A stretch of DNA of 61,886 bases, counting the filler, from Perkinsus olseni (taxonomy: Eukaryota): the NCBI GenBank assembly GCA_013115125.1. It is 2 parts of 2 records of this genome, joined end to end, with 100 filler letters (N's around TTAATTAATTAA, not from the genome) between each part and the next. Parts side by side here need not be neighbours in the genome. Positions count along the whole stretch, not along the records: positions 31,185 to 61,886 come from JABANN010000418.1; 1 more part is not named here. The stretch is one strand, 5' to 3'. Below, piece by piece: positions 1-59,298 of this stretch. A program made the position numbers and the translations under genes. Position 1 is the first letter of the stretch; every line of letters begins with the position of its first letter. The notes beneath the pieces are model-generated. The model ran no database searches and was not told where the DNA came from. It saw only the letters and a program-made list of their open reading frames with translations.

Positions 1-605
1 CACGATATCCAGCACTTCTGTCCGACCATACTCGAATATTCCCGTACTACTTCATCCAATAATCTCTGACCCCACTCCCCCTGGACAATGTTGATGGCGG
101 CAATGGTCGGGCAGCTCCCAGAACTGGCCTTGCGGTCAGTTGGGCGGTAGAAGTGAAAGGGACAAACATTGTCCAAGGGGCCCGGGGTGACAGTTCAGAC
201 GAAGTTCAGTTGCAGTCTACTGTCACCACCAGTGGGCGAAATTGGGGTGCAGAAAATTCCACAAATGCTGCTGGGAGCTAGTGGCTCCCAGGTGAAGTCT
301 AGGTAGGGTTGGTCGACCGAGAATCGAACCTGAGTGGGAAGGCACAAGGTTCCACGACCAGATACCGGCCAGGGATGAGTCGGATCAAGCTGGAGCAGGC
401 CGGCATTCGAGTGCGCCATCGGAAGTTGTCGGGGCTTGGGATCGATCCAGGGTGGGACGTACGATGCTAGACCGAAAGAGAGCGGGGAGGATGGATTATG
501 GGACCCTGCGTACCAACAGAGATACAGAGATTAACAAGTATGAAAGATGTAGACGCATGGGATTGAACCTGCAATTGAGCCTATAAATAGACTACAAGGA
601 ATAAA

Positions 606-678
606 TGGAGAACCCGGGCATCGATCCCGGTGCCTCTCGCTTGCTAAGCGAGCGCTCTACCATTTGAGCTAGTCCCCC
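606..678 (-). tRNA. tRNA-Ala(AGC)
   Basis: Reverse complement GGGGGACTAGCTCAAATGGTAGAGCGCTCGCTTAGCAAGCGAGAGGCACCGGGATCGATGCCCGGGTTCTCCA (73 nt) folds as a cloverleaf. Anticodon arm CTCGC-TT-AGC-AA-GCGAG, with the G3:U70 Ala identity pair. Confidence 0.96.
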
Positions 679-27230: not shown

Positions 27231-27327
27231 GATAGACACTACAACTAGCAATGGCAGTGGAGGTCGGAGGGATGAGTACTTGAATGGGATGCCATGACAA
27301 CGGCATCGATAACACAACAATCACACA

Positions 27328-29085
27328 ATGTACGCAGACGACTTATGCGTCGGAGTCAAAAGCGACAGCATCGAGGGACTGGTGTATGGAATTACGAGGG
27401 CAAGGCAGGCCGCGAAGGCGTGGGCGGAAAGAGAAGGTTTCAGCCTGGCGGAGGCCAAGGAAGAACTCTGGGTGGGCGGAGGGGATCTCACGAGAACCCT
27501 TATCGGCGATCGACTGCCCGAACTGCGAGGCAAGATTAAGGAGGAGGTCAAATGGCTAGGGCTGACCATGAGGAGCTCGCCGAAAGGGGGGATTTGTTTC
27601 AGGAGACAGGCCGAAAGGTCACTGGAGGAAGCTGGTAGGGCGCTGAAGAGGTACACGCCGCTCTGTCGGCGGCAGTTCGGCTTGTCCGAGGCAGTGCTGG
27701 AGGGACTCTGGCACAGGGTGATTATCCCGAAAGCCTGCTATGGAGCAGAACTATGGGGGCACCAGGCACGGTACGCCTGGTACACGAAGAAGGCCGAAAG
27801 CCTCAGGCATGCAGCGGGCAGACTGATGTGGCGGGCGCTCGGTTCAACGCCTGGAATACTGATGGCACGGGTGATGGAGTGGAAGAGGGTGGACCATGCG
27901 GTGGTGGAGAGACTCGCAAAGGCGACCCTGTACAAAAGGGGGTGGCGACTGGAGGAGAAGGATACTAAATGGCTCTCGCAGTATGCGGGCGACGTGCTCA
28001 GGAACCACCAGCCGGACAGGGAGCAGGTGGTACCAGAGGGCAGGGTTCTTGAGATAGACGGAGGAGGCAGCCCGACGCCAGAGGAAGGGTGCGTGCAGTA
28101 CTACACGGACGGGAGCCGTAAGGAGTGCACCAAGGGCCGGCCAAGGGGCGGACGCATTGCGACATGCGCCCGAGTAGGGTGCGGGGTGGCAGAGATCGGA
28201 CCGCAGGGAGAGTTGGTGTGGACACGTTCCCATCGACTGCCTGACTGGTGTACCGTGCATCAAAGCGAGTTGAAGGGGATTGAAAGAGCCTGCATCAGGG
28301 CGGAGACAACACTGCCGAAGGTGAGGGAAGGAAAGATAAGGAAGGTGGATATCTGTGTGGATAACATATCAGCCCTACGAGCAGCCGGCGGGCACATACA
28401 GTTGTTGGGGAGGACAGCTGCTAGCGCGCGAGCGGCGGTCATCCGGTTGACGGAGAAACTCGAGGAGGCTGGTGGGGAGCTCAGACTCAAGTGGGTCAAA
28501 TCCCACGTTGGGCATCGGCACAATGCCGTTGCCGACCTGCTGGCAGCGGACGGAGCGCACAGAGGAGGACTGCTGACGGTACCAGTTCCGTGGGTGCACA
28601 CAAGGGAGCAGATACAAAGGAGGTACGCGTCGAGAGGAGACAGGGACTGGGCAAGGAAGAGTAGTGGTCTGAGGGCTAGCTGGGCGGGCGTCAACCTTGG
28701 ACCGAGGCAGCGGAGGGTGATTAAGGCAGCGCATCTCTCGCCGGTTGACAGGCGGAGACTCATGGAGGTTATCAGCGGCCATTCGGTCACCAGGAGGCAC
28801 TGGTGCAAGATAGATCGGAATTTGGGTCCTGAGTGCCGGTTCTGTGGGGCGGAGATAGAGGATGAGAGACACATCATCTTCGAATGCAGACGCTTCGCGT
28901 TGGAGAGGATCAGACTGAAGCGCAGGCTCGGCTGGAGAAGTCTGCCATATCACATAGGGAACTTCCTATCTTCACCCTCGAGGCTGCGGGTGCTGATGGG
29001 CTTCTTGAGGAGGGTCTGGCCGGCCTTGGAGGGGCAAGATGCGGCTGCAACTCCAGCAGCAGCCAGAGGAGACTCCATGCATTGA
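27328..29085 (+). CDS. LINE ORF2 C-terminal fragment: end of RT, RNase H, CCHC zinc finger
   Basis: YADD; RNase H motifs YYTDGS, SELKGI, CVDNISAL, WVKSHVGHRHNAVADLLA; CRFC-x7-HIIFEC. The ATG is created by the TSD junction. Confidence 0.9.
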   Translation: MYADDLCVGVKSDSIEGLVYGITRARQAAKAWAEREGFSLAEAKEELWVGGGDLTRTLIGDRLPELRGKIKEEVKWLGLTMRSSPKGGICFRRQAERSLEEAGRALKRYTPLCRRQFGLSEAVLEGLWHRVIIPKACYGAELWGHQARYAWYTKKAESLRHAAGRLMWRALGSTPGILMARVMEWKRVDHAVVERLAKATLYKRGWRLEEKDTKWLSQYAGDVLRNHQPDREQVVPEGRVLEIDGGGSPTPEEGCVQYYTDGSRKECTKGRPRGGRIATCARVGCGVAEIGPQGELVWTRSHRLPDWCTVHQSELKGIERACIRAETTLPKVREGKIRKVDICVDNISALRAAGGHIQLLGRTAASARAAVIRLTEKLEEAGGELRLKWVKSHVGHRHNAVADLLAADGAHRGGLLTVPVPWVHTREQIQRRYASRGDRDWARKSSGLRASWAGVNLGPRQRRVIKAAHLSPVDRRRLMEVISGHSVTRRHWCKIDRNLGPECRFCGAEIEDERHIIFECRRFALERIRLKRRLGWRSLPYHIGNFLSSPSRLRVLMGFLRRVWPALEGQDAAATPAAARGDSMH

Positions 29086-40936: not shown

Positions 40937-42526
40937 CTAATACGATCCGCCCGAGAGCTGGTCGGCGTGCCCGATCTCCTTTGACGGGCTCTTGACCTCC
41001 GCTTGTGGTTGGTCTGGTAGATAGCGGCCTTGAGCCAGGAAGCCCTCAGTGCGGGGAAAGAGCTTACGCTGCACTATCGACACCGCTAGAGTGACCACGA
41101 CACTTCCCGCCATCACAACAAGGAAGACAATCATCGCCGTTGACGAGTACAGGCCGCCTGGCAACGTATACATTATGAAACCGCCAACGAAGGTGCCGGA
41201 CGAAGCCCAGCCGTAGATCAATATCGCGAGGTTGGCGGCGATAATACCACAGACGGCGCCGAAGGTCGTGACTGTCGAGTAGAGACCGCAGTAAGCCGGC
41301 ATGCAGATCGTAGCAGCGACGAGGTCAGCGACGAGGAAGAGGTTGATAACGGAGATCTCCCTCATGGCCACGACTATCGCCGGGACGTTCATCAGGACCA
41401 ACAGCAGCCGTCCCCAGTTGAGGCTCCACCCACGCTTAACGAACTCTGCAGCGAACACCGACAGGAAGGCCGACTGCAGAGAGTCGACACTTGAGGTTGT
41501 TAGACAGATCGCGAGAACCACAACCGCACCGACTGCCGCGTTCGGCAGAACTCCCAGAAGGTCGAAGAAGGCCAAGGACTTCGTGTACGGGTCCAACGTG
41601 AGGTGGGGTACTGGGCGGGCGCGGTCCTGAGCCTCGGCTAGCATGCCCAGCACGCCAAAGGCGATCATAGTGAGGAATATGAGAGTACCTCCGAGGAGCA
41701 AACCCATCCTCAAGTTGAAGTCATTCTTGGCCGCCCAGACCCTCTGCCAGATGACCATGTCGAGCAGCTGGAAGCCGAGGATAGCTAAGACAAGGGCGAT
41801 GAGGCTTTGGAACCCCAGAGTGCTCCAATTGGCGACGGCATTCCAGTCAGCTGCGGTGATCGTGACGTTGGTAGAAGTGGCGACCACGGCGAAGACGATC
41901 AGACCAACTGCTGCCACACCCTGGGCCATATCGGTCAGAATAGAGACGGGAAGACCGGCGACCAGAGTGTAGCTGAGCGTGATGACCGCTACTGAGAGCG
42001 TCGACAACCACACCGGTATGCCGCTGAACATCCTGATAACTTGTCCAACGGCAGTGTACTCGGCGGTGGTGCTGATCCACATGAGGAAGATGGACACGAG
42101 GACAGCGTAGGCTTGGACGAGGCGGCCGAATCTAGCGAGAATCCAGTCCGTAGCAGCGTACCCTTCACTACCCCCAGCTGCCATATATGAGTTCATCTTC
42201 CTCCTGATCTTCACTCCCAAGACCCAGATGATCGCCATGGGAACGACACAGGCCAGGGCGTATCCAAGAACTCCCCACCAGCCGAGGAACGTGCCAACTT
42301 CGGGCGCGGCGTAGATAACCCAGGTGCCCATACCGCTGGCAAAATAGGAGGCTCCAATCCAAGCCCAACTGAAGCGCTTCCTTGCAGCATAGAAGTCCTG
42401 CGCGGCATCAGCGTTCGACTGCGCCATAACACGACCGCGGAAGACCAGCAGAAGGTAGGCGACGGCCGCGAAGACGCCCAGGGTGATGTAGAGGATGAGG
42501 TAGCCAGAGAGGTTGGAGAGACGCAT
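40937..42526 (-). CDS. sodium:solute symporter family transporter, intronless
   Basis: About 529 aa with many TM segments. QDFYAARKRFSW, GASYFASGMGTW, YTLVAGLPVSILTDMAQG, WQRVWAAK and SSVDS are typical SSF motifs. Confidence 0.88.
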   Translation of the reverse strand: MRLSNLSGYLILYITLGVFAAVAYLLLVFRGRVMAQSNADAAQDFYAARKRFSWAWIGASYFASGMGTWVIYAAPEVGTFLGWWGVLGYALACVVPMAIIWVLGVKIRRKMNSYMAAGGSEGYAATDWILARFGRLVQAYAVLVSIFLMWISTTAEYTAVGQVIRMFSGIPVWLSTLSVAVITLSYTLVAGLPVSILTDMAQGVAAVGLIVFAVVATSTNVTITAADWNAVANWSTLGFQSLIALVLAILGFQLLDMVIWQRVWAAKNDFNLRMGLLLGGTLIFLTMIAFGVLGMLAEAQDRARPVPHLTLDPYTKSLAFFDLLGVLPNAAVGAVVVLAICLTTSSVDSLQSAFLSVFAAEFVKRGWSLNWGRLLLVLMNVPAIVVAMREISVINLFLVADLVAATICMPAYCGLYSTVTTFGAVCGIIAANLAILIYGWASSGTFVGGFIMYTLPGGLYSSTAMIVFLVVMAGSVVVTLAVSIVQRKLFPRTEGFLAQGRYLPDQPQAEVKSPSKEIGHADQLSGGSY

Positions 42527-42748
42527 GTTGGTGAACTCGCTTCCTACGCAGGTATTGTCCTGATCAGGTGGTGACGGTTTGATCTCAGCAAGTACCGAAG
42601 GGATGGTACGAGCACCCGTGCGAGTGCGAAAGTGAAGAGTAAACCTGGAAATGGAAAACGGCAAAGGAAGGCGAAAGTAAAAACTCAGAAACTCTGACGA
42701 TGGAAAAGAAACTTTGCTAGACACTCAAGTATTCGGGTGTGTTTTGGC

Positions 42749-44505: not shown

Positions 44506-47500
44506 TGCAACTACTTCAATAGTACTGACGATACGACGCCTATGACGTTTAATTGTGAGTTTGTCTTTCCCGAAGGCCCCCACCACGTAAAGTGAGACTG
44601 GATTTTGGAGACTATCCGATCAACAGGCCTTCCGCGACCGCCGTCAGCGTCCACTCCTTCCTCGAGTAGCTCTCGACGTACACGTGAGCTCCATTCGAGG
44701 ATCGCCCTGAACTCGCTGGATACCCCATGCGAGTCCTGATCAGGCAAGTAGGCCTGTGGCCACGCCGATGGCGGAGGGCATGGCATGAGGAACCTATCTT
44801 ATCCATAAATTCGCTCTGTTGATCATAACCCATGCTCTTCGGCCCAGATTTCACTGGTCCAACTGTTAAGAGTTGATCGCTGATCGCGCGTCATAGCGGA
44901 GCGAAGCGATAATTTTTCCGCAGTTTTCAAGCGCAATATCTTTTGTCTCCACGACTAGCGCCTTCGAACAGTCTCCGACAGGTTTTCTCTCAGTATTATG
45001 TTCTTCCAACTATGACTGAATCGTATCAATACTCCAAACCTTCTCCCCGACTTGCTGCGGTACCGAGCAAATTGATAAGGCCTTACCCGGTTTTTTCGAA
45101 CCGCTATTTCAACCAGCTACTCGTATGGCAATTTCAATTGGTGTGGAAGGTCATCACGGCCATAGTGACCATTCTCAGTGCAGTAAGGTGCTCCGACCCT
45201 CCTCCTGCGTTCATGACTTTTCTCAGATTTTCACTTCTCGAATTCGACAAGAGCCGCTGCCGGCTAAGGAGAGCCTGCGCGGTGGATGTAAAATCAAGGC
45301 AAAGTTGTAAGTATCACACCAATCGGTTGCCGCTTAGTGGTCTGGATGACCATTCCTTACTGCTCACATCGGAGTGAGAGACTACCGTAGAACGTTGGAC
45401 TGAGGGAAAATCGGTAACTCGGGTAACGTAACTGTGGATCGAGGAAAATATACGAGGACGGTGGTCCTCAATTTCTTAGTAGGACTACTGATTCTAGGGT
45501 TTAATGAGTGTATTAACGAGTTGTTACTAGGTGGACGTCAGCGGTATGATCGGGATTTCACGAAATGAAATGGGCCATTTCAAATAGTCGTCTCGGTAAC
45601 GCGCTATGGTGAGTAAATGGACCGCATCTTCGTCTCAATGAGTGGCATGGAAACGCCAAGTGCGTGTCGTGTGCTTTAGTCGTTACTACCGACTCGGTAG
45701 TCGTTGATGCCATCAACTTGATGGGTTGTTATGCGGTCAACTGTGAGGGTTGAAGCAGTCAGCCCGGCGAGTAGTCTTATTATCGTCAGAACTACTGCCA
45801 CACACGTGAGCTTCGTGATAGTCCGCGGAGTTTGAAAGAACCGCGAAAGACTCGCCGGATCACCCAGCCTGGGTGAGATATCGACCTACCTGCAACCCGA
45901 ATTCAAGAATCGACCGTATATACGTCGATCTGGTGCCACACCGTTGCCGATCACTTCACTATCTCTAACCAGGCTGCCGCATTCGAGTAAGTCGTCATCT
46001 TTATCTCCTCTTGCAGAAGAGTTGGGAATGTCCCGCAATGACTCCGAAGACAGACCGCTGGATAGCAGTCAAGGTGTACCGCAGTAACTACGGGCAATGC
46101 ATCACCTTTGAAGAGCCAAGAGGACCCCTGCATATGTTTTGGTCCTCTTTTGCCGACCCGGGAACTTTCTTAACTTAGTAGCTAGCGCGGGTCATCGGAT
46201 TGAGTGGCGTGGTTGAAAGAATGTCGGAGGAAAGGGGCTCAAGAGTCGTGAGCCACGACTCCTGGGCCGGGAGAACCACGCCTGGCATACGAGCATGGGG
46301 ATGAGCCTGGCATTGCAGGCTTGATGCCGGCAGAACTGAACACCTAGGCCGGCTGCGTTGTGATACTGACAGGCTTCTTCACGATCTTGCCTGGTTCTCA
46401 AATGGTCGGTCGGTTCTCAAATGGCTGTTGAACAGCAGCATTCCTGTTTTTCATCTGCGTGATTCACCGAGTATGAAGTGGAAGATTGCTGGCCCTAGGA
46501 AGTTGCCTTTGTGGCTTTCTGTTGCCGGGATCACGTTGAAGTCTGCCTCCCGATGTTGTCACGGTGGAACTCCTGAGGTCCAATCGGGGAGATGAATTCG
46601 GAACGGAAAGCTTGCCGGAAGTCAACTGACATGAACGGCACTTAGATTGCTCAGTATCGCTCTCTAGGCACTGAGCATTTTTAAAGCTCAAGGTCACCCT
46701 TACACCTCGGAGAGGTGCAACCATGCGGTGCACCGAGTATGCGTCACGCATGAATCATGCGGCATGATGCGTGGTAATTAATTCGGGTCCCCTGAGTCAG
46801 GAGACTCAGAATTGCAGCGCAGCGTACCAACTAGATCAATTGCAGTAAACTCAGTTTCTGTCTCACTGTTCCAAGTTCGCTGTTTTTGGTTGTTTCCCTC
46901 TCACCGAAATCTGAAATTCCGACTCTGAATACAGTGCGAGCTGCATTGTGTTCAACCTGATTGCTGAGCCTCCTCCTGGGCCTCCTCCTCCTCTTCCTGA
47001 TTGCCTCACAAATTGTGAGGCAACCCGCATGCTGAGTCTGGTTGGGGCCCATCGTTTGGATTGAGTAGACCTATGCTCTCTTAGGTGCCACGACTTCTCC
47101 AAAGATGACCAACCGATGCCTCAGAATGCGTTTGCTGTGACTCCACCCAATAAGGTGGACCTCTCACACGAAGGATGCAACCCGACAAGGCTGCTACAGA
47201 GCGCTAAGGTACTAAATGGCGTTCGGAAACATTCCTGATAGTTCGAATGGTAGCCTGTCGGGTGATGCACCTCTCGAGCTGTCGCAGATACCACTGAGCT
47301 GAGCTCAGTGAGCTCATTCTCGCTCTTTCAGGTCTCCACCAGCTTGTCGTTGGCCAGCGGTCTGCGGCGCATCCCGGGTATAGGATTGGGGATAGCCTCT
47401 GGAAAGGATACTAACGCTCTATTGGAAGTGACAGTTTCACACAATACGATGGAGTCTATTAAACTCGTGCTGACCAAGCCGGTAGCGCTTTATGATATCA

Positions 47501-47577
47501 AGTAGGTCGGATAGGCGGAAAAGATTCCTTATGGAGAATCTTTCAGGCGAGCACTGCGCAACTACAACGACATTGCT

Positions 47578-49023
47578 GTGAGGCCTCAGCGGAAATCCTT
47601 CCGCGGTCGGATACTCAGCCTGGCCAGCTGGGGCTTTGAGCTGATGGAGCGCCTCGGCATTATCATCTGCCTATCATCAGCGAAGTCCCTGGCCGCGCCA
47701 AGTGCCCACGGGGCTTTGCGCCTCAGTTTCAATGGTTTCATATCATTCGCGGGAGGCCTCATCAGGCTGCCATTCCGTGACATTGTTGTTCCTGAGGAGA
47801 TTATCCCACTACCGCTGGCCCGCCTCGATCTGGTCGGCTATTTCGCAACCGCTGCGGGCAATCACACCTGTGTCCAGAGCAATAAGGGAATGGTCAGAAT
47901 CGATGAGAAGCCGGACGAATTTGCGCGAGTCCTGTCCGATTTGATAGTCGGAGCGAAGTTCTCGGTGGTCTCGAGATTCCTCATACCTGAGGTGGAGGTT
48001 GCTAACGTTTTGGGCGATCTATCTGTTATTACGACGACTATCACTCACAAGGCTGGCGGGTCGAAGGTCATGTACATGCGTGCAGCTGGGTCGTACCATA
48101 ATGATTGCGAAAAAGATGGTATGAGTCTTTCTCTGGATGATCTCAAGTTGAAGGAAGACTCCCCCTCTATTCTGAAGGCGAGATGGGTCGGCACTAAGCT
48201 GGGCAGCCTGAGGAAGGATGCTCCGTTGGAAGGTCGACTCTCGGTGGAAATGTTCGACACGCAGATTTTGTCGCAGTCGATCGAAGTGAGTGTGGACTAC
48301 TGCAATCCTGTAGTGAGGGGGTGCGTTCACAGTCCGGTAGAAGTTTCAAGTTTGGTGGTATGTGGCAAAGCCGAGATGACTGTGAAGGCCGCCTCGGTCG
48401 CCAAGCTGCTCGACAATGCGGCTGAGAACATCGAAATCGACTCGGATGTCTGCCTGGACTACTCTTCAATCATTTCTCTCACGAAGGGACTCATTGACGA
48501 CGGTCTTGCCAAGGTTTATGGCAATGCTAGAAATTTCGAAATTCGCGGAAAAGTTGTGGCTGATGGGAAAAAACAGGACGCCGTGGATCGCCTGAAAGTG
48601 ACTGCGGTAGCGAGGACGAACAACGCCTTCCCCCTCGCGGTTTCCACTGTGCTCCCTCTGCCGGTCTTCCCCGAGTTGAACATGTCCAGCAGCGACAAAG
48701 TTACTATCGCGGGCTCGGCAAGGCTGACAGCGAGTGGCGGTTTCAGATTTACGGAGAAGGGCGTGAGCTGTGATGATTCGGTTGTGGACGTGGAAGTATC
48801 GAATCCTGTGCGGGCGAAGTTCTTGCGGAGGGAAGTGGTCTTGCCGTCTCGTACCCATCTGAAGGCGGTTATCAATATGCTGCATGTGGGCTATGACGGC
48901 TTGGCGCAGACAGATATGATGGTCACGCTGGACGAAACTTATCTTCATTTTTCCGGCTGCAATGGTGGTGGTACTGCCGCCTTGCGACTCAGACCAGTCA
49001 CTCTACCGGTGAGCATCAGGTAG
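47578..49023 (+). CDS. hypothetical protein (long open exon; true start probably spliced)
   Basis: 481-codon uninterrupted ORF, Val/Ser-rich with beta-strand-like patterning. No recognised motif. Confidence 0.65.
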   Translation: MRPQRKSFRGRILSLASWGFELMERLGIIICLSSAKSLAAPSAHGALRLSFNGFISFAGGLIRLPFRDIVVPEEIIPLPLARLDLVGYFATAAGNHTCVQSNKGMVRIDEKPDEFARVLSDLIVGAKFSVVSRFLIPEVEVANVLGDLSVITTTITHKAGGSKVMYMRAAGSYHNDCEKDGMSLSLDDLKLKEDSPSILKARWVGTKLGSLRKDAPLEGRLSVEMFDTQILSQSIEVSVDYCNPVVRGCVHSPVEVSSLVVCGKAEMTVKAASVAKLLDNAAENIEIDSDVCLDYSSIISLTKGLIDDGLAKVYGNARNFEIRGKVVADGKKQDAVDRLKVTAVARTNNAFPLAVSTVLPLPVFPELNMSSSDKVTIAGSARLTASGGFRFTEKGVSCDDSVVDVEVSNPVRAKFLRREVVLPSRTHLKAVINMLHVGYDGLAQTDMMVTLDETYLHFSGCNGGGTAALRLRPVTLPVSIR

Positions 49024-49333
49024 TAAGCGGGGAGAGGCGACCATGCTGGTGGTCTGGGAACGGGCTCAGACATTGAGGGTTCTCTCGGGCCCTTGAGTCG
49101 GGAGTGGTTGATAGCATCCGTTTTCGTTATCCTATAGAGCTCAGTTGACATCAGTGTTCTTCGTATCGTTAATGATTTTCAGTGGTGTCATATCTGCATG
49201 ACAGATACTCATAAAAAGTATTTGAATGAATTTGATAAATGCTCTGTTCATAATAGTACATTCGGCAATCACAAAACTACTGATTTGATGAGTAGGTGAT
49301 CTCATGACCATACTCTCTTATATTGAACAATAG

Positions 49334-52300
49334 GTGAGGCACTATTCTCTGATTCGCCGAGAATCTGCATCGGGTGGTTCTATTTTCACTTTTAGTCCGG
49401 TCGGCGGCATCGACTGCGGGGAGACCATCATTGGTGCCATACTGAGACCGGATATCCGAGGCGCGGTCTTTTTAAATACGATGGAGAAGATCAGGGCTGG
49501 TGAAGAGGATGAATTCTTGAGGGGTCTCCGAGACGATATGGACGGGGTAGGTTGATGGGGAGTGTGCTGGTCGCGATGGTTGGGGTGTATGATGGAAAAG
49601 TTTTGCCTACATTAGAGCCGGGCAACCGCACTGGGGTCGAGGAAAGTACGGTACAGAGTAGGTTTCAAAATGTCAACCTAGTACGGGTACGGAGAACTAG
49701 TACGTATTAAATATATTAAACAACGATGCTATCAACCGTCTGGATATCCACGTGTATTAAATTACGCCGTACTTCAAGTACGGGAACTCACGCGAACTGC
49801 TGCGACGGGTAGTACGGTTAGTACGGAGCGGTATTCGTACCCGTACCGTACTAGACCGTACTACCCGTACTGTCGCCCACCTCTAGGCCCTGGAGGCAAG
49901 TTAGAGTGTCGAAAATGTCTGTTCTGTGATGGCTAGTTGAGGCCCTGTTTGACTACTCATCAGAAACGCTTCGTCCGTAATAGTGGAATTTTAACGTAAA
50001 ACTGATTGATATAAGATAGACGGCTGGTTACCCTGGCTGGTCTTAGGTTATCAAGGTTATGGTACCGTCTCTTCACTCCTTCGTCTGGCGTATCGTTGAT
50101 GAAGTCAAGCGCGCTAAGAGGGTGCTGGAGGAAGAGAAAGTAGTAGGGGGATTTGAGAGACTCTGTTGTGCTCTCGATGATGCTGGGGAGAGAACGGCGC
50201 GCCTCTGTCTTTCTTCGTAAATAAGATAATCCATCGTTACTAGAAGGCTCCTAGTAGAAGCAGTGATTGTTAAATGGGAATGAAGTGCAGGAATTATGTT
50301 TCGAAGGAAGTAAAGGAATGAGGAGAATAGAGGACATGGTTGAATGTCACGGGCTTCATTTTTTGGGATCATCTACCACGGCCCACGACCAATTTGGCCG
50401 TTAGAGTGAGGGTAGAAGCAATTTCTTCCTTTAATAGAATACGCAGACTGCGCGCTTTCGAATGGTATATGTCTCGCGAGTTCGGTCAACATAGTCGTGG
50501 AGGAATGATTTGAACGACCCCCCCAAGAAAACGTAGAAGTGATAGTATACGCTTTGCTCGCTCCGCAGTTTGGGTTGGCTAAGTCGTTCCAGTTAGTTGG
50601 TTGACCCTTGTCATAAAAACTCTGTTTTACGTTTTCTAACAATCGCTTCCCTAGGTAACAGCGCCGCTAGATGTGATACCCAACAGCAAGATGGGCCGCC
50701 TCGTCAGTCTTCTGTTCTTCAAGGACGACTCGAGAACGGAGAGGATCTCCAACATCTTCCACCAGGTGATGTTGATAATTTCGTGGCGCGCGGTAATTGG
50801 CTCGTTCAGGTTACCGAGGGTGATGGATTGGACAAGGCCGCGTGTCGTGAGCTTATTGATGAGTGGAAAGATATGTTCCTTCCCTTAAAAATTACCGACA
50901 AGTCCGTCGACGAGGAGAGTGGCAGTAACAATAGTGAAATAATTGACGAGACTGAGGACCCGACCAACCCGCTTTGGAAGCGCTATGAGTTGGATCCTAC
51001 AGAGTTCATCCTGTTTGTGTTGGGCAAGGTAAGACGGCAAGGCTGATGGTTGTCAGCCTCGACGAGGATTTGGTTATAGTGTTTACTGACCTCTGTATAC
51101 CGTTGTTGCCATTCATAAGGACTCGTTCTGAATTTGTGTATTGGTTGGAACCATGATCATTGGCAAGCTTTTTACCATTTTTCTATCAGATTCTTGCTCC
51201 AGCTAAACCCATAGAAGCTCCTGGATTGAAGCCACCGAAGTGGCAGGATCCGGTCTCCACGGATCCTTCCATCAAGGTTGAAGGATTGGACAGGTTGCCT
51301 AGTGCCAGCGATCTTTATACGTGAGCTGAGGGGATATCTTTGCTTGCCCTAGGAAAGATACGGAAAAGGTCAGGTGGAGTGCAACTTTTTCCTGCCGGTT
51401 TTTGATCCAGCTCTCAGTCGGAAAACCATCAATCGTGTTCATTTGCATTGATCTGTTTTTATTCTCTCGCGGAGGTTGGTGTTCTTTATTTCAGAGGGGA
51501 CCGCCGAGCTTCGGATGTGGCAACGTATCTTCGCACTGCGCAAGTTGCATGGTTGGTGGATCACGCTGATGAGTTTGGATACTCGGATGAGGAGAAGAGG
51601 AAACTACAGTAAGTAGTGGTCGGGAATTAGTACTTTTTTTCATGGTTAATATCTAGTGAAACCGTTGAGATGGACTATTGGTCATACAGCGTGAACGGGA
51701 GAGGTGCAACAGGACAAGTAAGGCCGCTGTGCCACGTGGCAGGCCGCCTGGTTGGCGTACTTCATCAACCCTACCTCGATTGTTCGACTACTCCAGTGCC
51801 TCGCATGCCATAGGGACCCCAGTCTTTCATGGAGCGTTGCGGCCACTCTTTTGCTTGTTGTATATGTTTCGTTACCGTCGAATGCAATGCCATTATAATA
51901 CGACTAATGACGATATTTCAGTGTGGAAGGAAAGCTCGCAATCTATAATCTTGGTAGGATGATTCGACCGCCGTTCTCGCGCCATTTGGCATAGTGGACC
52001 ACTATTAGTGGTCCTTGGATCTTTGCAGTCCTATCTCTTCCGTCACATCCAGCTCGTTTCATAGTGATCATCTTCCTCTGCTGCCGCTATGATTCATTAT
52101 ACGTTGCCTTACTGTACAGATGCTGTTACCTCAGATACGTCCTTTCCCTCAAGCGCTTTGCCTTTACCATCTTTGAGAATTACGGCGGTCTCGCCTTCGT
52201 GCCACAGTCTAGGGTGGTCGGGCTCTTCTTGGCCGACGTCGTCCGTGTCGAGCAAGAGCTTGCCAAACGCCAAGGGTTCGATTCGATGAAGGCAGCTGCA

Positions 52301-52411
52301 GAGTGGCAGCGGAAGGAGGCCGGTGTACGAGAGAGATCCACTGGTGCCGAGCTAGGTCGGTGATGCGACCTGATGGTGGTATCCTTTGGGCGAGCGCTTT
52401 TCACATCGCAG

Positions 52412-52451
<40 letters not shown>

Positions 52452-55400
52452 CGGATCTTTGGAGATGGTCTCGGCGAAGTCTGATGAGGGTACGAGTTTG
52501 TCGTCGGATACGTACAGCAGCTGCAGTAGCGGCGGAGCGGAGGAGTCGACGGGGGAAGAGCCGCAGTTCACTAAGGGAGGGTTCATACCCCAGGGGTTCT
52601 TGCATAGGATGACACTGCAGATGAAGCCGGATGATCATGAGGTAATCGGAAGGTCGTGGGTTCGATCCCCAGCGGTGTGTATGTTAACGATGCGCCTGCG
52701 TGTACTGCATGGGTCAACCTAAGATGCTATTTCACGGTCGTATTCTTTATCGTCAGGCTCTTCTACGCGGTAGTTTGCGCAGTAGTGCTCAACCCTTCGG
52801 ACTCTCTTCTCGGGGAGTCACCCCGCCGGAACCCACCCTGCCCGACTTCGCCGCCTGCCGGTGGTTGGGCATGCCCTTCACCCTACTCGGTGAGCTTATC
52901 GTCTATACTACCGCCGAAGATATCTTTGCTGTGCGCAGGACCTGGTGACGTGGCTTCGATGTTGGCCTCGTGTCTGGCGGCACCCTGGGCGGGCGCGGTC
53001 GTCCAGAGCAACACTCGGATGCTACTGGAAATGCTACTACAACAGCAGCAACCAAGAGAGTAGGGAAATCGATCTCGGAAGAACTGGCGGTGAGGGTATC
53101 TTTCATCAGGTATGTCATTGCAGTATTATGTGAATCGTCACAGAACGGCTCAGCTCGGGCGTTGACGAACATTCTAATGAGGCTGTTGGAGATTCCGCAG
53201 GACAGGACGGTTCATCGTATTGATGTTGCGGCTCTGCTGGAAGAAAAGTTAGAGTAAGTTGTGCGTGTTTTCTTGTTTGATGCACGAGTCAACCTCGGAT
53301 ACGCCAGGCCATGGAGAGTTTTTTTACGGCGGAATTTTCTTCTTTCTGACACCTCTAGCTTCTTGTCTTGTTAGGTACCCAGTTCCTCGCAGAAGCGATT
53401 ACATGGCTGGTGGAAGGAAGCCTCGGGACAGTTACTATCATGCTTGCAACGTATTGGCGAGTCGGATACTCCGAGAGAACATGGACCAGTATCTTGCGGT
53501 CAAGAACAGACTAACAGTGTGCTACAGGTAAATACGGAGGAAGTATCTTTGGTTGGCCATCGTCGCTCTCATAGTCAATTCAATTTTCGTGTAGTAGTGG
53601 TTGCCTTCGTCAGCTTAGTCGCATAGGGATAGGCTCCCACCATGAAGTTGTGGAATTATTCGAATTTTGTGCTACTGTACAGTGGAAGCTGCGGTACCTT
53701 CGTGTGGGCGTGTTAGTTGTACTGGAAGAGAATGGACCCCTTTAGGATACCCGCCACCGCGCCTTTCACTAAGGAGGTCCGAGAGTTGGAGGACAAGGCC
53801 ATCACTGCAATAGGGCCCACGAAGGACTTGAAGGCTACTAAGGAGGACTTTGGTACTACTGGGTGAGGCTGTGGGATGATACAATCGGTTCGGAGGAGAT
53901 ATTGGTTGCTCGTGTATCTCAACTCTACCTGTGTAGTTCATGGATGGCTAGAAGATTCCTCTTGTGTATTGGTATCTCTGGTTGACTCTGGGTGTTTACG
54001 AATCGGGTCACTTGCTCAGAGAAAGCCTTCGCAGCCTGCAGGGAGGCCATCAAAGCCGACCGTCGTATTGTGGATAGGGACTGGTGCAAGGAGTTTATGT
54101 TGAGGAGCTACGAAGCATTTATGGTGGGTCTGGTCTTAGCGGAGCGAAGCGTTTTTTATTTGTACGTTTTTTAGGTCTTGTCGATTTACGATGAAGTAGT
54201 TCCCGATATTGAGGAATCGAGAGAGTGGTTGATGGTTTTGGCGGGGACAGACACCCTCCCGAAGGATCCGGTGGCCCTAGTGGAGGTTATTGTTAAGTAG
54301 GTCAGGGGAGTATCTTTAGGTTACCCTGGCAAGACTCAGAAGATATGATACTCCCGATTGTGTTCGCCTCTGTGATGGATGATCAGATCAACAATATTGT
54401 TTATATGCGAATCCAAGGTCGACCAAAGAATTTTACATTTAGGTCGATTTATCGGTACGAAGAAGATAGGGAGAGAATCCTTAATGACCCTCTGACCAAG
54501 TTGATGTTGAGGAATCCCAAGGGTGAGCAAGAGTAGCAAGATTCCTATACATACCTCAACCCCTTGTAGGCCATGTTAAGCTAGCATTGGTCTCCGCGAT
54601 GGGCGTCATCTCTGAGGGGGCGGAAGGAACTGAGCTTGCCGAGACCTTTCACCGGATGCATGAGAAAAGGGGCCTGCAGATCGTCAGGTAGGATACTGCT
54701 GGTTCGCGCAGCGCGAAGATTTTTGTATCAATTAGCATATTTTTCCAGTATTCTACCGGTTTAGTCTTAGGGGAGATTTTTCCGGAAAAGGGATTATTTT
54801 CCCATTTATCAGGGCTGACACTGGCACTGGCCGATCGTTGGAGTACAACGCAAGGAGAGTTATCCAAGCCATAAGGAAGATAGATCCCGACACTGAGTGG
54901 GGATGGCTGGGCTATTCGCAGGGCTGTGCCAATGCATTGAGAGCGGAAACTACCGTCCAGACTGGTAGGGTGGAAGACGGTGGCAGGGCTGGTTACCATG
55001 ATGAGAGGGAATGAATAAGTCGGGGCGGGGTCGTGGCTGGTAACGGTTATTGATAGTAACATTAACATTCAGTGATTATCATTATTTAATATAATTGTAT
55101 TGTATTTGTCGTTGTCATGACCGAGGATCGAACCCGGGATCTATCGTAGGTACCCCTGAAGAATACGACCTGATCCACAATAGACTGGTTGGTCGTATGT
55201 TGATATTTAGTGCCTTCAACGGCTCTGTACACGGCAAGCTGGGAGACGATAAAGTCCAGGCTGTTATCATGGACTTGGAGTATTTCATGAAGTTACTACA
55301 GGTGAGATAACCCGCCGTCTCTGAGCATTACTCACCGTCGGAAGATATCCTTGTGAAAATCTTCGCTGTGCGCATCTCTATCCGGCTCCTTGATAGACTC

Positions 55401-56649
55401 TCGCAGATTCTCTGCTACTGAGGGCTGGATGAGGGCCTAGCAGCGGAGCGGCCTTTTGTGTTTCGCGCATCGTTGACCAGTGAAAACTTCCTGAATCGTT
55501 CTTCCTTCCCTCAGGCTCACTTCTCATCCCAGTTCGCTGGTTCGGCTCTGAACCTCTTCACCTCAGCGTTGGCCTCTCGTTTAGTGACGGACTTGTTGGT
55601 TGGTGAGTCCCGGGATGGATTTATCGATCGCATATAAACCTGAAGAGAATTTGACGTGCCAATATGTTGTTTCCTCAGTGATAGAAGAACTCCTGGAGCG
55701 CGCCCGTATTAGTTGGCTTCCGCCAAATCAGTTTTCCGCTAGCCTCTTTTCAAATTGCGTATGAAACTGAAATGAGGCCTGATCGTGCCCATTATACGGC
55801 TTCGTTTCACTACATAATTGTAATTTTTCACTACTTTTTACTAACTATCTTATACTTATTTTTACTACTAATCTACATGGTGTAATGTTATTGTAGTCCA
55901 CAGTAAAAATGAGCCGTACTTGCTGTATCAATTTATCGTATAGTGGGACTACATCAATACCAAAATGGCAATATAATATGTTGCGCTATCTCTCGACCTC
56001 GATCGACCTTTGAGGAAGATCTCCTCAGGAGTCCAATCCCTGACACATGAAGGGGTCTTTACGTTATGGCGGGATGGCCAGTTCAAACAGAGCACACCGA
56101 CAGTGGCGATGAGAGGGGCTGTGGAGGGAAATGTAGTAAAGATGCTCCGCACAGCGAAGATTTTTAGGGAATGGTATCTTGCTGAATTTAGGTGACTTTG
56201 CCAGAAGTATTGGAGCTGCTGAGTAATATGCTCACTAAACAGACACTTAATCATGAGCATCATGATACACAGGTAGCCCGAGGTCCCGGGTTCGATCCCG
56301 GCAACATGCATTCTTTCGCTCTGCAGGTTACCGTACATGAATGCGTATCTCACTCCATACATGTTCGCAACTCACACACGGACGTCTTCGCGCGGTCGGG
56401 CGTCGACGCAGCAGTTCAGCGGACGCACCATTGGAGCCCTCTTCTGAAAGTAAGCTTGGGCGAATTTCGTGGCGCGCGGTCATATCCTTCTGTTATCAGG
56501 AGTCGGCCTTCGTTACCACTCAGCGTGATCGCGAGAGGCACGTGTATGATACGGCAAAAGACAGGCATATCGAGCCTTGGCTGGAGAACATGATACGCTT
56601 CGGACTGGTCCCTTTCGTGAAGGATGAATCAGTTGCCGGTGGGAGCTGA
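49334..56649 (+). CDS. large multi-exon protein with a C-terminal alpha/beta-hydrolase (lipase-like) domain; 5' end uncertain
   Basis: Spliced exons give WGWLGYSQGCANAL (GxSxG), HDTQ/VTVHE and THHWSPL, with a stop at 56649. Intron phases were consistent at the junctions I checked. Confidence 0.7.
49613..49885. mobile_element. degenerate hAT-like MITE
   Basis: Right end CCGTACTGTCGCCCACCTCTA, imperfect left end TAGAGCCGGGCAA, and many GTACGG/CCGTAC subterminal repeats. No clear TSD. Confidence 0.5.
52412..52450. repeat. (GTA)n microsatellite, likely coding poly-Ser
   Basis: Run of gta units directly after an AG acceptor, in frame as SSSS. Confidence 0.85.
52643..52681 (+). pseudogene. tRNA 3'-half fragment (Lys-like) at the 5' end of intron 52642-52723
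   Basis: TAA-TCGGA-AGGTC-GTGGG-TTCGATC-CCCA(G)C-GGTGTGT-A. No 5' half upstream, which is exon. Confidence 0.75.
55113..55146 (-). pseudogene. tRNA 3'-half fragment (Val-like), antisense, at the 3' end of intron 54965-55149
   Basis: Minus strand CGAT-AGATC-CCGGG-TTCGATC-CTCGG-TCATGAC-A with a fully pairing T stem. No 5' half. Confidence 0.78.
56275..56310 (+). pseudogene. tRNA 3'-half fragment at the 5' end of intron 56273-56326
   Basis: A-GCCCG-AGGTC-CCGGG-TTCGATC-CCGGC-AACATGC-A followed by TTCTTT. No 5' half. Confidence 0.72.
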
Positions 56650-57172
56650 TTGTTGGTGATTGGATTGTTTTCACCCCTGTTTAACCAACTGTCGTTGAGT
56701 GCCATCGTGGACTCTCTCATTCACGATTGTGGCGTTGAGTTGTCAAGTGGGGGGGGCTCTCATCAGGGATTGAACATAGGATGAAATCATAGCTAATTCT
56801 AACTGGTAGCATCTACGGCAGTGGGGACGGCACCATCTTTGACTAGCGTGCAAGCCACAGAAGCCGGTGCCCTTTGCATGGAGGGGGCTGATCGTACCAT
56901 GGACGGTTCCGACTGAGATACAGTGTTTTCATGTATGTCCAGATTATGGGAAACTAAACCCGAGTTAGTGTCAATGTAGATATTTCCTTATGAGTGTCTC
57001 AGTAGTGCCATTTACGAGAATCGCCTCACAGACGGTTGTCGTCCTCCGTCGAGGGTCTGCATAGACGGTTCCAGAACTTGTCTGGTGGTCACCTTGTTAG
57101 TCATCGCATTGGCGCGTGGTTGATGATGGTGACATGTCTACCACTGCCGTAGGCGTACTATCTAACTGTCGG

Positions 57173-57216
<44 letters not shown>
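57173..57216. repeat. (GTA)n microsatellite
   Basis: Perfect trinucleotide run. Confidence 0.9.
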
Positions 57217-57218
<2 letters not shown>

Positions 57219-59298
57219 ATGTTGAGAGGCCCCTCTGTGGCTTCGATACAAGCTGGCTCTATGCCGATGATAATGGGTTGCAGGGAATTTGACCGCCGGA
57301 GTGGTCTCAGTTGATGAGATTGTTTACCACCTGATGGTGTCATCTCTGCTGTCTCTAAACCGAGACTTCTGCCAGGATGTCCGACTGGACCCCGGCATTA
57401 CTGTTAGGGTTGGAAGGAGACCTCCTCCACCCGGCCATGGACATGCATATAATGTAAGGGAGAGGAGGTATCTTAGGTTGAAGCTTGCTGGTTGCAGGTG
57501 ACCATTGAATCACCCTATGTTGCACGATTTCAGTTTGAATTATCATCAACTGCATCAACCCTTAACGGTGAGTATCTTAGGTCGACCCAAGGCAATCGCG
57601 AATTATTTCAGAAGTTTGGAGACTAACCAGCCGCAGCTGGGGCGGGACGCTCATCTCTCCAAGATTCTCCTCCATGCAGAAGGTCAACCAAAACGAGTCC
57701 GCAGATATCAGCCCCGGCGACACCATATACATTTCCAGTAGAAATATCTTCAATGATTTTGGAACATGCATCCCTGCTCAGCCTCTCCGCAGATCGGCTT
57801 TGTACTTTACTCGCCGAAGGCTGCTGCCGTGACGAAGCCGCCGAGGGCGAGCGAAGGAGAGGAAGAGCTTCCTGATGAGCATCGTTGCATCATCTGCTTG
57901 GTGAGATGAGTACTTCTCGGAGGATAGTGAGAAATTTCTCAAGATACGATGAAAGATCCTTCCACTGTGAAAGGCTGTCACCACACCTTTTGTGGTGAAT
58001 GTTTGGATGCTTGGCTGGAGAGGAGCGACCGGTGCCCCGTATGCTCATGCCCGGTCACTCGACACTGTAGGTTGTTGCGATGAAGGTGGAGAGTTCCTCG
58101 GTGGTAGTGTTATAATAATTTCAGAGTCGGCTGATCTGCTGAACTGCACTCCTCAATCTATGCCTTTACACGAACTAGTCTCACTTTACTAGCATACCTA
58201 TTGCGTTGTTGTGAGAGTCCATGGGAGAAAAGGAACGCTCGAAGGCAGATGGAACCACTTAAAGTGGTCCACTTTGGTGAGAACGTTCACATCACACTCG
58301 CCACGTTCCGTTGTGGTATAGTATGTTCGAAACTAAGATCGGAACTCTCAGCAGTCACGACGAAGTCCACTTTTCGGTATAAATTCCATAATACTTTAGA
58401 AGAGACCGAATGGCTGCTCCTCTGAAGACTCCCTCTCCGGTGCCTTCTTCAGTAGTGAACCCTGCATTCAAATATCCCCGTGTAGAGCCGTGAATGGTAC
58501 AACTGTGATAGTCGGCCGTCACTCTGCTCGAAGGACGCGTCGTGCAGCACACCGATGAGGAACAATAGTGTTTTCGACCTTCTGTGATGGTGTGGGCACA
58601 CAATCCACTTGTCTGCCAGCGCTAGTAGCGTTTGTTCCTGCTTTATTCATAAAAGATCGGGCTCATCAGTATCACTCATGCCGAGTTCGGGTGATAACAC
58701 CTTCCCAGCTGCTGCTGCTGATTCTTGTAAATCAGAACCGCATCTCTGATTGAGCGTCAATTTGCTCACCCATTTTCGGTCAGAAATATCGCGACCACTA
58801 TTTCAAGCCACTGTTACAAGCCACAGAAACTAGGTACAGGTTGCCGACTTGAGAAGGGCCAACCCCTCACGATTTATTCGTGCGAACAGGTTGAGAGTTG
58901 TAACGCACACCAATCGAAAGCTTTTGTCAAGCTCTACATAACCTCGTTCTCTTCGTCATCTCACTCGCAAGTTTCCCGAAAACGAAAACCCGAAAAATCA
59001 AACCAAACGCCAAAAAATCGCGAAAATTCGTTGGCAGAATCACCGAGGCCATGCTGACGCTGTGACGTGCCTAGGAGAGGGGCTGACGCTGTGAATCAAC
59101 ACATCATCGGAGATCCTGTTGTGAGTTGGTATCAGAATTCCCCCTCCATACCTCATAAGCAAGCCATCACGTTATTGGATGATAGGCATCCCGGAGACTA
59201 CCAACACAGCACACAATACACTCTTGCTAAGAAATAATCAAACTCTGATATTGAGCTAAAGAGAAAGAAGACCAGTTCATCGCGGTAGCGCCTCAATA

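Follow-up and report, generated by a model that had tools for sequence, protein, structure and literature searches.

Sequences resembling tRNA 3' halves lie flush with splice sites in three introns of a Perkinsus olseni gene

We analysed a 62-kb stretch of DNA from the perkinsid shellfish parasite Perkinsus olseni (61,886 nucleotides (nt), joined from two records of assembly GCA_013115125.1; hereafter the window), in which a single long gene bears, within its 3' half, three introns (I1, I11 and I15) each with a piece resembling the 3' half of a transfer RNA (tRNA) at one of its ends. The 1626-residue ortholog of the encoded protein from P. chesapeaki (P0002) aligns with the window in 20 colinear tblastn segments that span the gene (see Table). 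The peptide of exon 54814-54963 shows 100% identity to a partial P. olseni protein and 94% identity to the P. chesapeaki ortholog, and joining the exons at 16 junctions yields a single open frame of 786 codons. The protein family was matched by no Pfam or NCBIfam model; its members measure about 1300-2200 amino acids and all have the motif GYSQGCAN, without variation, as a candidate serine-hydrolase elbow. Relatives were recovered from metagenome contigs (144, the best 80 of which were kept), from species-representative prokaryote genomes (106, mostly metagenome-assembled genomes of Myxococcota), and from diatoms, Triparma and MMETSP transcriptomes. In a quick tree of 46 rows the Perkinsus sequences and one further protein (P0021) form a long branch of their own, which falls in neither the bacterial nor the stramenopile group. 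A serine run of the protein is encoded by an (AGT)n microsatellite at 52412-52452, where the sequencing-run contigs described below break.

Evidence for splicing comes from contigs of four public runs, which were aligned on positions 51500-57500, and is drawn from the contig-covered parts of that region. One run (X19) is recorded as metatranscriptomic RNA-Seq, two (X7 and X9) we guess to be RNA, and one (X8) is unlabelled. The same stretches, at least 15 in number and each bounded by GT and AG, are skipped in the contigs of all four runs; a sixteenth intron, 53060-53109, was recognized from the contig record coordinates and its GT..AG ends. I1, I11 and I15 behave in every respect as spliceosomal introns, with GT..AG ends, removal from the messenger RNA and preservation of the frame. 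A preliminary description of this DNA had proposed such a check of the junctions against RNA; its coordinates proved exact for I11 and I15, and for I1 it had the right donor but an acceptor, 52723, that is unused, the acceptor in the RNA being 52756, in agreement with the P. chesapeaki protein. I15 is itself in frame and free of stop codons, such that its retention would add 18 residues and leave the frame unbroken. In most introns of 52.6-56.5 kb an RTATCTTT-like element stands 10-19 nt ahead of the acceptor AG; it probably combines the branch site and pyrimidine tract of P. olseni. The likeness of the I15 tail to a repeat motif of other introns (motif A, below) probably reflects this general 3' signal (RTATCTTT...YAG) and not homology.

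Each of the three pieces measures 35-37 nt and comprises a variable loop, T arm, acceptor strand and discriminator. The I1 piece consists of anticodon-loop AA, TCGGA, AGGTC, the T arm GTGGG/TTCGATC/CCCAG, CGGTGTG and discriminator T, and the I11 piece of T38, ACGAT, AGATC, the T arm CCGGG/TTCGATC/CTCGG, TCATGAC and A. The B-box-like sequence GGTTCGATCC occurs exactly five times in the window and is present without mismatch in all three pieces, while the pattern AGRTCNNGGGTTCGATCC, covering the variable loop and T arm (18 nt, 16 specified bases), occurs exactly three times, solely in I1, I11 and I15. When up to two mismatches were allowed, shuffled sequences gave a mean of 0.10 matches to this pattern, and 0 of 100 shuffles reached three. 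A covariance model derived from the three pieces and run unfiltered over the window recovered its inputs at 44-50 bits, as it must by construction, and its next match was the 3' half of a tRNA-Ala gene (603-643, minus strand), which aligned in register with 16.8 bits and an E value of 0.029; the remaining 14 matches scored 11.5 bits or less. This tRNA-Ala(AGC), the sole intact tRNA gene of the window, provided the comparator.

Features of the window discussed in the text (positions along the window)
Feature	Position	Strand	Remarks
Host gene	47080..56616	+	large uncharacterised Perkinsus protein; 17 or more introns in the 3' half of the gene
Intron I1	52642..52756	+	115 nt, phase 0; contig joint 52639>52755, GT..AG after +2 shift, 4/4 runs
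tRNA 3'-half-like piece in I1	52644..52680	+	covariance model 49.5 bits; T stem 4 of 5 pairs; Rfam match to T arm only
Intron I11	54965..55149	+	185 nt, phase 1; contig joint 54963>55149, GT..AG, 4/4 runs
Antisense tRNA 3'-half-like piece in I11	55113..55148	-	Rfam positions 37-71 of 71, 5'-truncated, 10.8 bits
Intron I15	56273..56326	+	54 nt, phase 0; contig joint 56269>56324, GT..AG, 4/4 runs
tRNA 3'-half-like piece in I15	56275..56309	+	Rfam positions 37-71 of 71, 5'-truncated, 12.4 bits
tRNA-Ala(AGC)	606..678	-	sole intact tRNA gene of the window, comparator; ARAGORN; Rfam 55 bits
Repeat motif A in I12	55340..55374	+	17-nt exact match to I14, opposite orientation
Motif A related copy in I2	52915-52937	+	
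Motif A related copy in I14	56146-56164	-	
Motif A related copy in I10	54705-54719	-	
Motif A related copy	51528-51542	+	
Intron I16, carries motif B	56450..56499	+	18-nt exact core common to predicted 44-nt intron 50766-50809

The Rfam tRNA model scores the pieces weakly (E values of 5.8 for I11 and 2 for I15), far below its gathering score of 29 bits. The matches to I11 and I15 arose only when the searched stretch began at the piece itself; a search over 51-58 kb with E values up to 10 returned no match. The Rfam alignment of the I15 piece entails a one-base deletion that leaves a 6-nt T loop. Five of the five T-stem pairs can form in I15 with this shortened loop and five of five in I11 (one of them G-T), as against four of five in I1. 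The parts of the pieces thus lie in the register expected of tRNA-derived 3' halves, with the T stem, the pattern and the covariance model speaking for the I1 piece. Accordingly, the presence of tRNA 3' halves in three spliced introns, put forward in the preliminary description, is confirmed by pattern and covariance model and, for I11 and I15, by Rfam. None of the pieces is a functional tRNA gene, as both ARAGORN and the Rfam gathering threshold find tRNA-Ala alone in the window. Near the pieces, a 5' acceptor strand that could pair with theirs and is accompanied by a D arm was not found, again as first described, and neither of the two matches to an A-box-like pattern in the window is near the host gene. 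The anticodon-stem strands differ between the three pieces, as do the acceptor strands, for which this had been noted before. The discriminator A attributed to all three is found in I11, but I1 has T, and I15 has C if the one-nucleotide T-loop deletion is accepted. The I1 piece may resemble tRNA-Thr. Among the 80 retrieved metagenome loci ARAGORN identified five tRNAs, one of which was usable for a 3'-half profile.

The three pieces share a distinctive placement. Each starts at about tRNA position 36-38, within 0-2 nt of a splice dinucleotide, and all three are turned with the anticodon-loop end towards the exon and the discriminator end towards the interior of the intron. The pieces of I1 and I15 are in sense orientation at the donor, and that of I11 is antisense at the acceptor. 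In I15 the piece starts directly behind the donor GT with tRNA position 38; the I11 piece, taken along the minus strand, likewise starts with position 38 at the acceptor AG, 1 nt from the exon; and in I1 the bases behind the GT read as positions 37-38, while the GT may itself represent anticodon positions 35-36. The orientations are those given in the preliminary description, whose breakpoint of about 36-40 at 1-3 nt from the splice dinucleotide was right as to placement and is narrowed here to 36-38 and at most 2 nt. By our own arithmetic, a 37-nt piece placed and oriented at random would show this layout with probabilities of about 0.027, 0.014 and 0.14 for intron lengths of 115, 185 and 54 nt, or ~5e-5 for all three. 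Of 16 introns of the gene, 11 have G at donor position +5, but I1 has T and I15 has C there, and the acceptor of I11 is without the T-rich tract that is present in the other introns. The splice-proximal bases thus follow the tRNA rather than the preference of the spliceosome. The longest direct repeats at the junctions are CAGGT in I15 (5 nt), GGTA in I11 (4 nt) and AGG in I1 (3 nt); read as target duplications, they would have the inserts start at tRNA positions 38, 38 and 36 respectively. The corresponding repeats of the other 12 listed introns measure 1-5 nt, with a mean of 2.5.

The spliced Perkinsus protein was compared with the best-scoring 40 of the 80 metagenome loci. In 34 of these 40 the match was a single unbroken stretch, roughly 600-740 residues long and 34-42% identical, and perkinsid genomic DNA was absent from the best 80 of the 144 metagenome relatives. 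In a multiple alignment the spliced protein is free of gaps across I11, which immediately precedes GTPEE, and across I15, which separates HDTQ from VTV; both sites sit inside blocks conserved from bacteria (Myxococcota) to diatoms. The region around the I1 site is specific to Perkinsus. At each of the three sites the protein of P. chesapeaki is colinear. Given this precise removal from the coding sequence, the three introns are exact interruptions rather than intronized coding sequence.

Other introns of the gene also share short segments. Pairwise local alignment of 17 introns in both orientations gave scores of at least 22 in 9 of 272 comparisons, versus 3 of 816 shuffles. The four window matches to a 15-mer of motif A with up to two mismatches all fall within the host gene. 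The similarity of I16 to the predicted intron 50766-50809 scores 37, compared with 26 for the best of 816 shuffles. Plus and minus copies of such repeats in different introns could base-pair in the pre-messenger RNA. Moreover, contigs have loose ends directly behind shared intron segments in several runs (52725, 53305, 55355/55374, 56304 and 56481), which indicates that the same segments occur in other expressed loci. One contig of run X7 matches the I15 piece up to 56304, including its 6-nt T loop, and then diverges. Terminal inverted repeats are lacking at the ends of I1, I11 and I15, no A-rich or repeat tail was found behind the I1 or I15 piece, and the predicted folds of the three introns are no more stable than those of shuffled sequences (z -0.44 to 0.84). 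A suspected likeness of I16 to the 3' end of U6 small nuclear RNA was rejected, as Rfam gave 0 matches at E values up to 10 over 56445-56505, and I3 may resemble 5S ribosomal RNA over 11 nt. We also considered relics of spliced leaders, to which the Perkinsozoa spliced-leader paper offered no link.

Several further elements were detected in the window. A thiamine pyrophosphate (TPP) riboswitch aptamer at 42524-42629 on the minus strand scores 60.3 bits, above the Rfam gathering score, and lies in the leader of an open reading frame (40937-42724, minus strand) with a weak match to sodium:solute symporters, which may encode a thiamine-regulated transporter in this perkinsid. A 590-codon open frame on the plus strand (27313-29085) has reverse transcriptase and RNase H matches below the Pfam cut-offs and is probably a retroelement remnant. 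Around the tRNA-Ala gene, the minus strand of 300-1150 contains degenerate bits resembling tRNA 3' ends (423-462, 310-340 and 550-575), and two tandem copies of GGTTCGATCCC lie at 1107-1147; as there is no clear coding frame in 300-1150, these bits are probably tRNA pseudogene debris. Within the host gene, the predicted intron 49547-50046 includes inverted GTACGG-rich arms around ~170 nt (~49678-49853), which by eye resemble a miniature inverted-repeat transposable element.

The combination of features in I1, I11 and I15 recalls several known systems. Introners are inserted DNAs that become introns, with one splice site carried in by the element and a second that takes its final form within the duplicated target, as outlined in PMC11282704 and, for Amoebophrya, in PMC7789003. 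The introners of Micromonas, Aureococcus and dinoflagellates and the introner-like elements of fungi resemble the present introns in consisting of inserted DNA, in occurring in both orientations and in having shared intron sequence. Here, however, the ends bear no terminal inverted repeats, the junction repeats vary (3, 4 and 5 nt), and the tRNA 3' half is all that is shared between otherwise unrelated bodies, so that these introns do not qualify as DNA-transposon introners; our literature search also found nothing that links introners with tRNA-derived sequence. In Daphnia and Drosophila, introns have reportedly been gained through double-strand-break repair with filler DNA. Such introns are comparable in their short direct junction repeats, filler of mixed origin and precise removal from the coding sequence, but to our knowledge, and in our searches, tRNA-derived filler with a fixed 37/38 breakpoint is not reported. 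Mammalian tailless tRNA retropseudogenes are partial tRNA copies made via an RNA intermediate, with breakpoints in loops; their 3' fragments bear CCA and are not known to be associated with splice sites, whereas the pieces described here are without CCA and are all three flush with splice sites. Likewise, the leading end of tRNA-derived short interspersed elements is a tRNA-related module that includes a B box, but in our pieces the module starts at position 38, and the head of A and B box and the 3' tail that define these elements are incomplete, the 5' half, A box and tail being absent. In the absence of a 5' half and an A box the pieces have no internal RNA polymerase III promoter. Split and circularly permuted tRNA genes encode the 3' half separately from its 5' counterpart and are broken in the anticodon loop. 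Such a separate 3' half is also seen here, except that there is no 5' half nearby and the pieces are inside spliceosomal introns of a protein-coding gene. Nor do the pieces represent primer-binding sites of long-terminal-repeat retrotransposons, since two are in sense orientation and the antisense one lacks TGG and spans 36 nt. In agreement with the preliminary description, which knew of no system with this layout, our searches of the literature, supplements excepted, yielded no account of tRNA halves at the ends of spliceosomal introns.

Based on these observations we tentatively propose, with a probability of roughly 0.4, that the three introns arose from inserted DNA whose leading edge was a copy of a tRNA 3' half. 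The insertion would have occurred in continuous coding sequence at AG/G-type sites, with a tRNA 3' copy extending from about position 38 to the discriminator at the leading edge. Its most likely source would be DNA copied from a tRNA, from the 3' half of one or from a 3' exon, copying having begun near the discriminator and ended at position 37/38, and the end of the copy would then have been joined to one side of a chromosomal break. Such a joining would explain why the position-38 end always abuts the exon and why other filler comes after the position-73 end. A short duplicated target would supply or complete the GT on one side and the AG on the other, with the consequence that the whole insert is spliced out. 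Position 37/38 is the canonical site of tRNA introns, and a bulky modified base 37 stops reverse transcriptases. What the data show is the splicing, the likeness to tRNA, the layout and the clean removal from conserved sequence; the origin by insertion, the RNA intermediate and the break-repair step are inferred. The weak reverse transcriptase/RNase H frame in the same window may be counted in favour of the insertion, as may the nature of the other introns of the gene, which are patchworks of short shared segments. The tRNA-linked creation of introns envisaged in the preliminary description is therefore partly supported: the anatomy fits, namely the break at 36-38, the outward-facing end, the flush position, the agreement of the splice-proximal bases with the tRNA and the precise removal.

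Several points weigh against an origin of the introns from such insertions. CCA after the discriminator is absent from all three pieces, where the next bases are ATG, ATT and ACG, and the pieces hence do not have the form of retrocopies of mature tRNA; the lack of CCA had been noted at the outset. A derivation of the three pieces from different tRNAs, as first described, is at most suggested by their differing stem strands. Junction repeats of 3-5 nt are close to the yield of the AG/GT consensus alone. As every spliceosomal intron resembles a precise insertion, the gap-free sites exclude intronization and prove no gain, and, with no bacterial origin evident in the host-gene tree, the introns need not be recent. 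Furthermore, the 6-nt T loop of the I15 piece, together with the divergence of the X7 contig after 56304, may reflect a self-copying repeat family or an allele and not a fresh capture.

A self-copying family of this type would be introner-like, with a terminal module derived from a tRNA 3' half and splice signals of its own, and the introns would be its diverged copies. This is somewhat unlikely but conceivable in view of the contig loose ends directly behind shared intron motifs, the 6-nt T loop common to I15 and the diverging X7 contig, and the presence of both orientations, as in DNA-transposon introners; introners are also frequent in the dinoflagellates, the sister group, as outlined in PMC11282704. 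It sits poorly with the lack of terminal inverted repeats in all three introns, the three different lengths of the junction repeats, the limitation of the sequence shared by I1, I11 and I15 to the tRNA core, and the other 52 kb of the window, which hold neither a further tRNA module nor, with up to two mismatches, a copy of motif A. A further possibility is that the introns are old and that tRNA-derived DNA landed in them later, or that gene conversion or repair reshaped their ends, in which case the flush position would point to sites that tolerate insertion and not to the way the introns arose. The preliminary description had allowed for such remodelling, the introns of the gene are mosaics, and the colinearity of the P. 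chesapeaki protein at the three sites is compatible with introns older than the split of the two species. Nevertheless, we regard it as improbable, because insertion behind the GT would overwrite donor positions +3 to +6, and insertion before the AG the pyrimidine tract, which are the least tolerant places of an intron, and because a flush position with the same end outward is not expected in three of three pieces (~5e-5, as calculated above).

Maintenance of tRNA-like modules for a function, be it as B-box sites for TFIIIC, through intron-intron pairing that steers splicing of the long pre-messenger RNA, or as tRNA-half mimics set free upon splicing, an alternative raised in the preliminary description, could account for the exact GGTTCGATCC in all three pieces, for the plus and minus copies of motif A in different introns, and for the complementarity of the antisense I11 copy to I15 (17 of 18 nt, 15 of these in an exact core) and, over 11 nt, to I1. 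The intron folds are no stabler than shuffles, however, and the T stems have mismatches (I1) or a deletion (I15); we consider such a role very improbable. As for a chance resemblance of intron sequence to tRNA, it would accommodate the low Rfam scores and the failure of ARAGORN to call any piece, but it is effectively refuted by the pattern and the covariance model: three exact matches to the 18-nt pattern stand against an expectation of 0.10 even with two mismatches allowed, the matches run in register to the discriminator, and the T stems are complementary.

If the insertion of DNA led by a tRNA 3'-half copy is taken further, it raises the more speculative possibility, which we consider doubtful, that Perkinsus makes DNA copies of tRNA 3' halves, or of 3' exons cut at 37/38, and that these copies, captured at chromosomal breaks in coding sequence, provide a recurrent, genome-wide source of introns. 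The stop of the copy at 37/38 would then set the first bases of the new intron. The G before the donor of I1 could even be inosine-34 of tRNA-Thr read as G, and thereby a direct mark of the RNA intermediate.

The origin of new spliceosomal introns is a long-standing question, for which the known sources are transposon-like introners and the filler of break repair. Our finding, which covers one gene within the window, suggests that tRNA-derived DNA helped to create I1, I11 and I15. If true, tRNA halves with a fixed breakpoint would constitute a third and mechanistically readable source of introns, and the cleavage or modification of tRNA would be linked to genome evolution. As Perkinsus belongs to the sister lineage of the introner-rich dinoflagellates, such a source would bear on the intron richness of the whole group.

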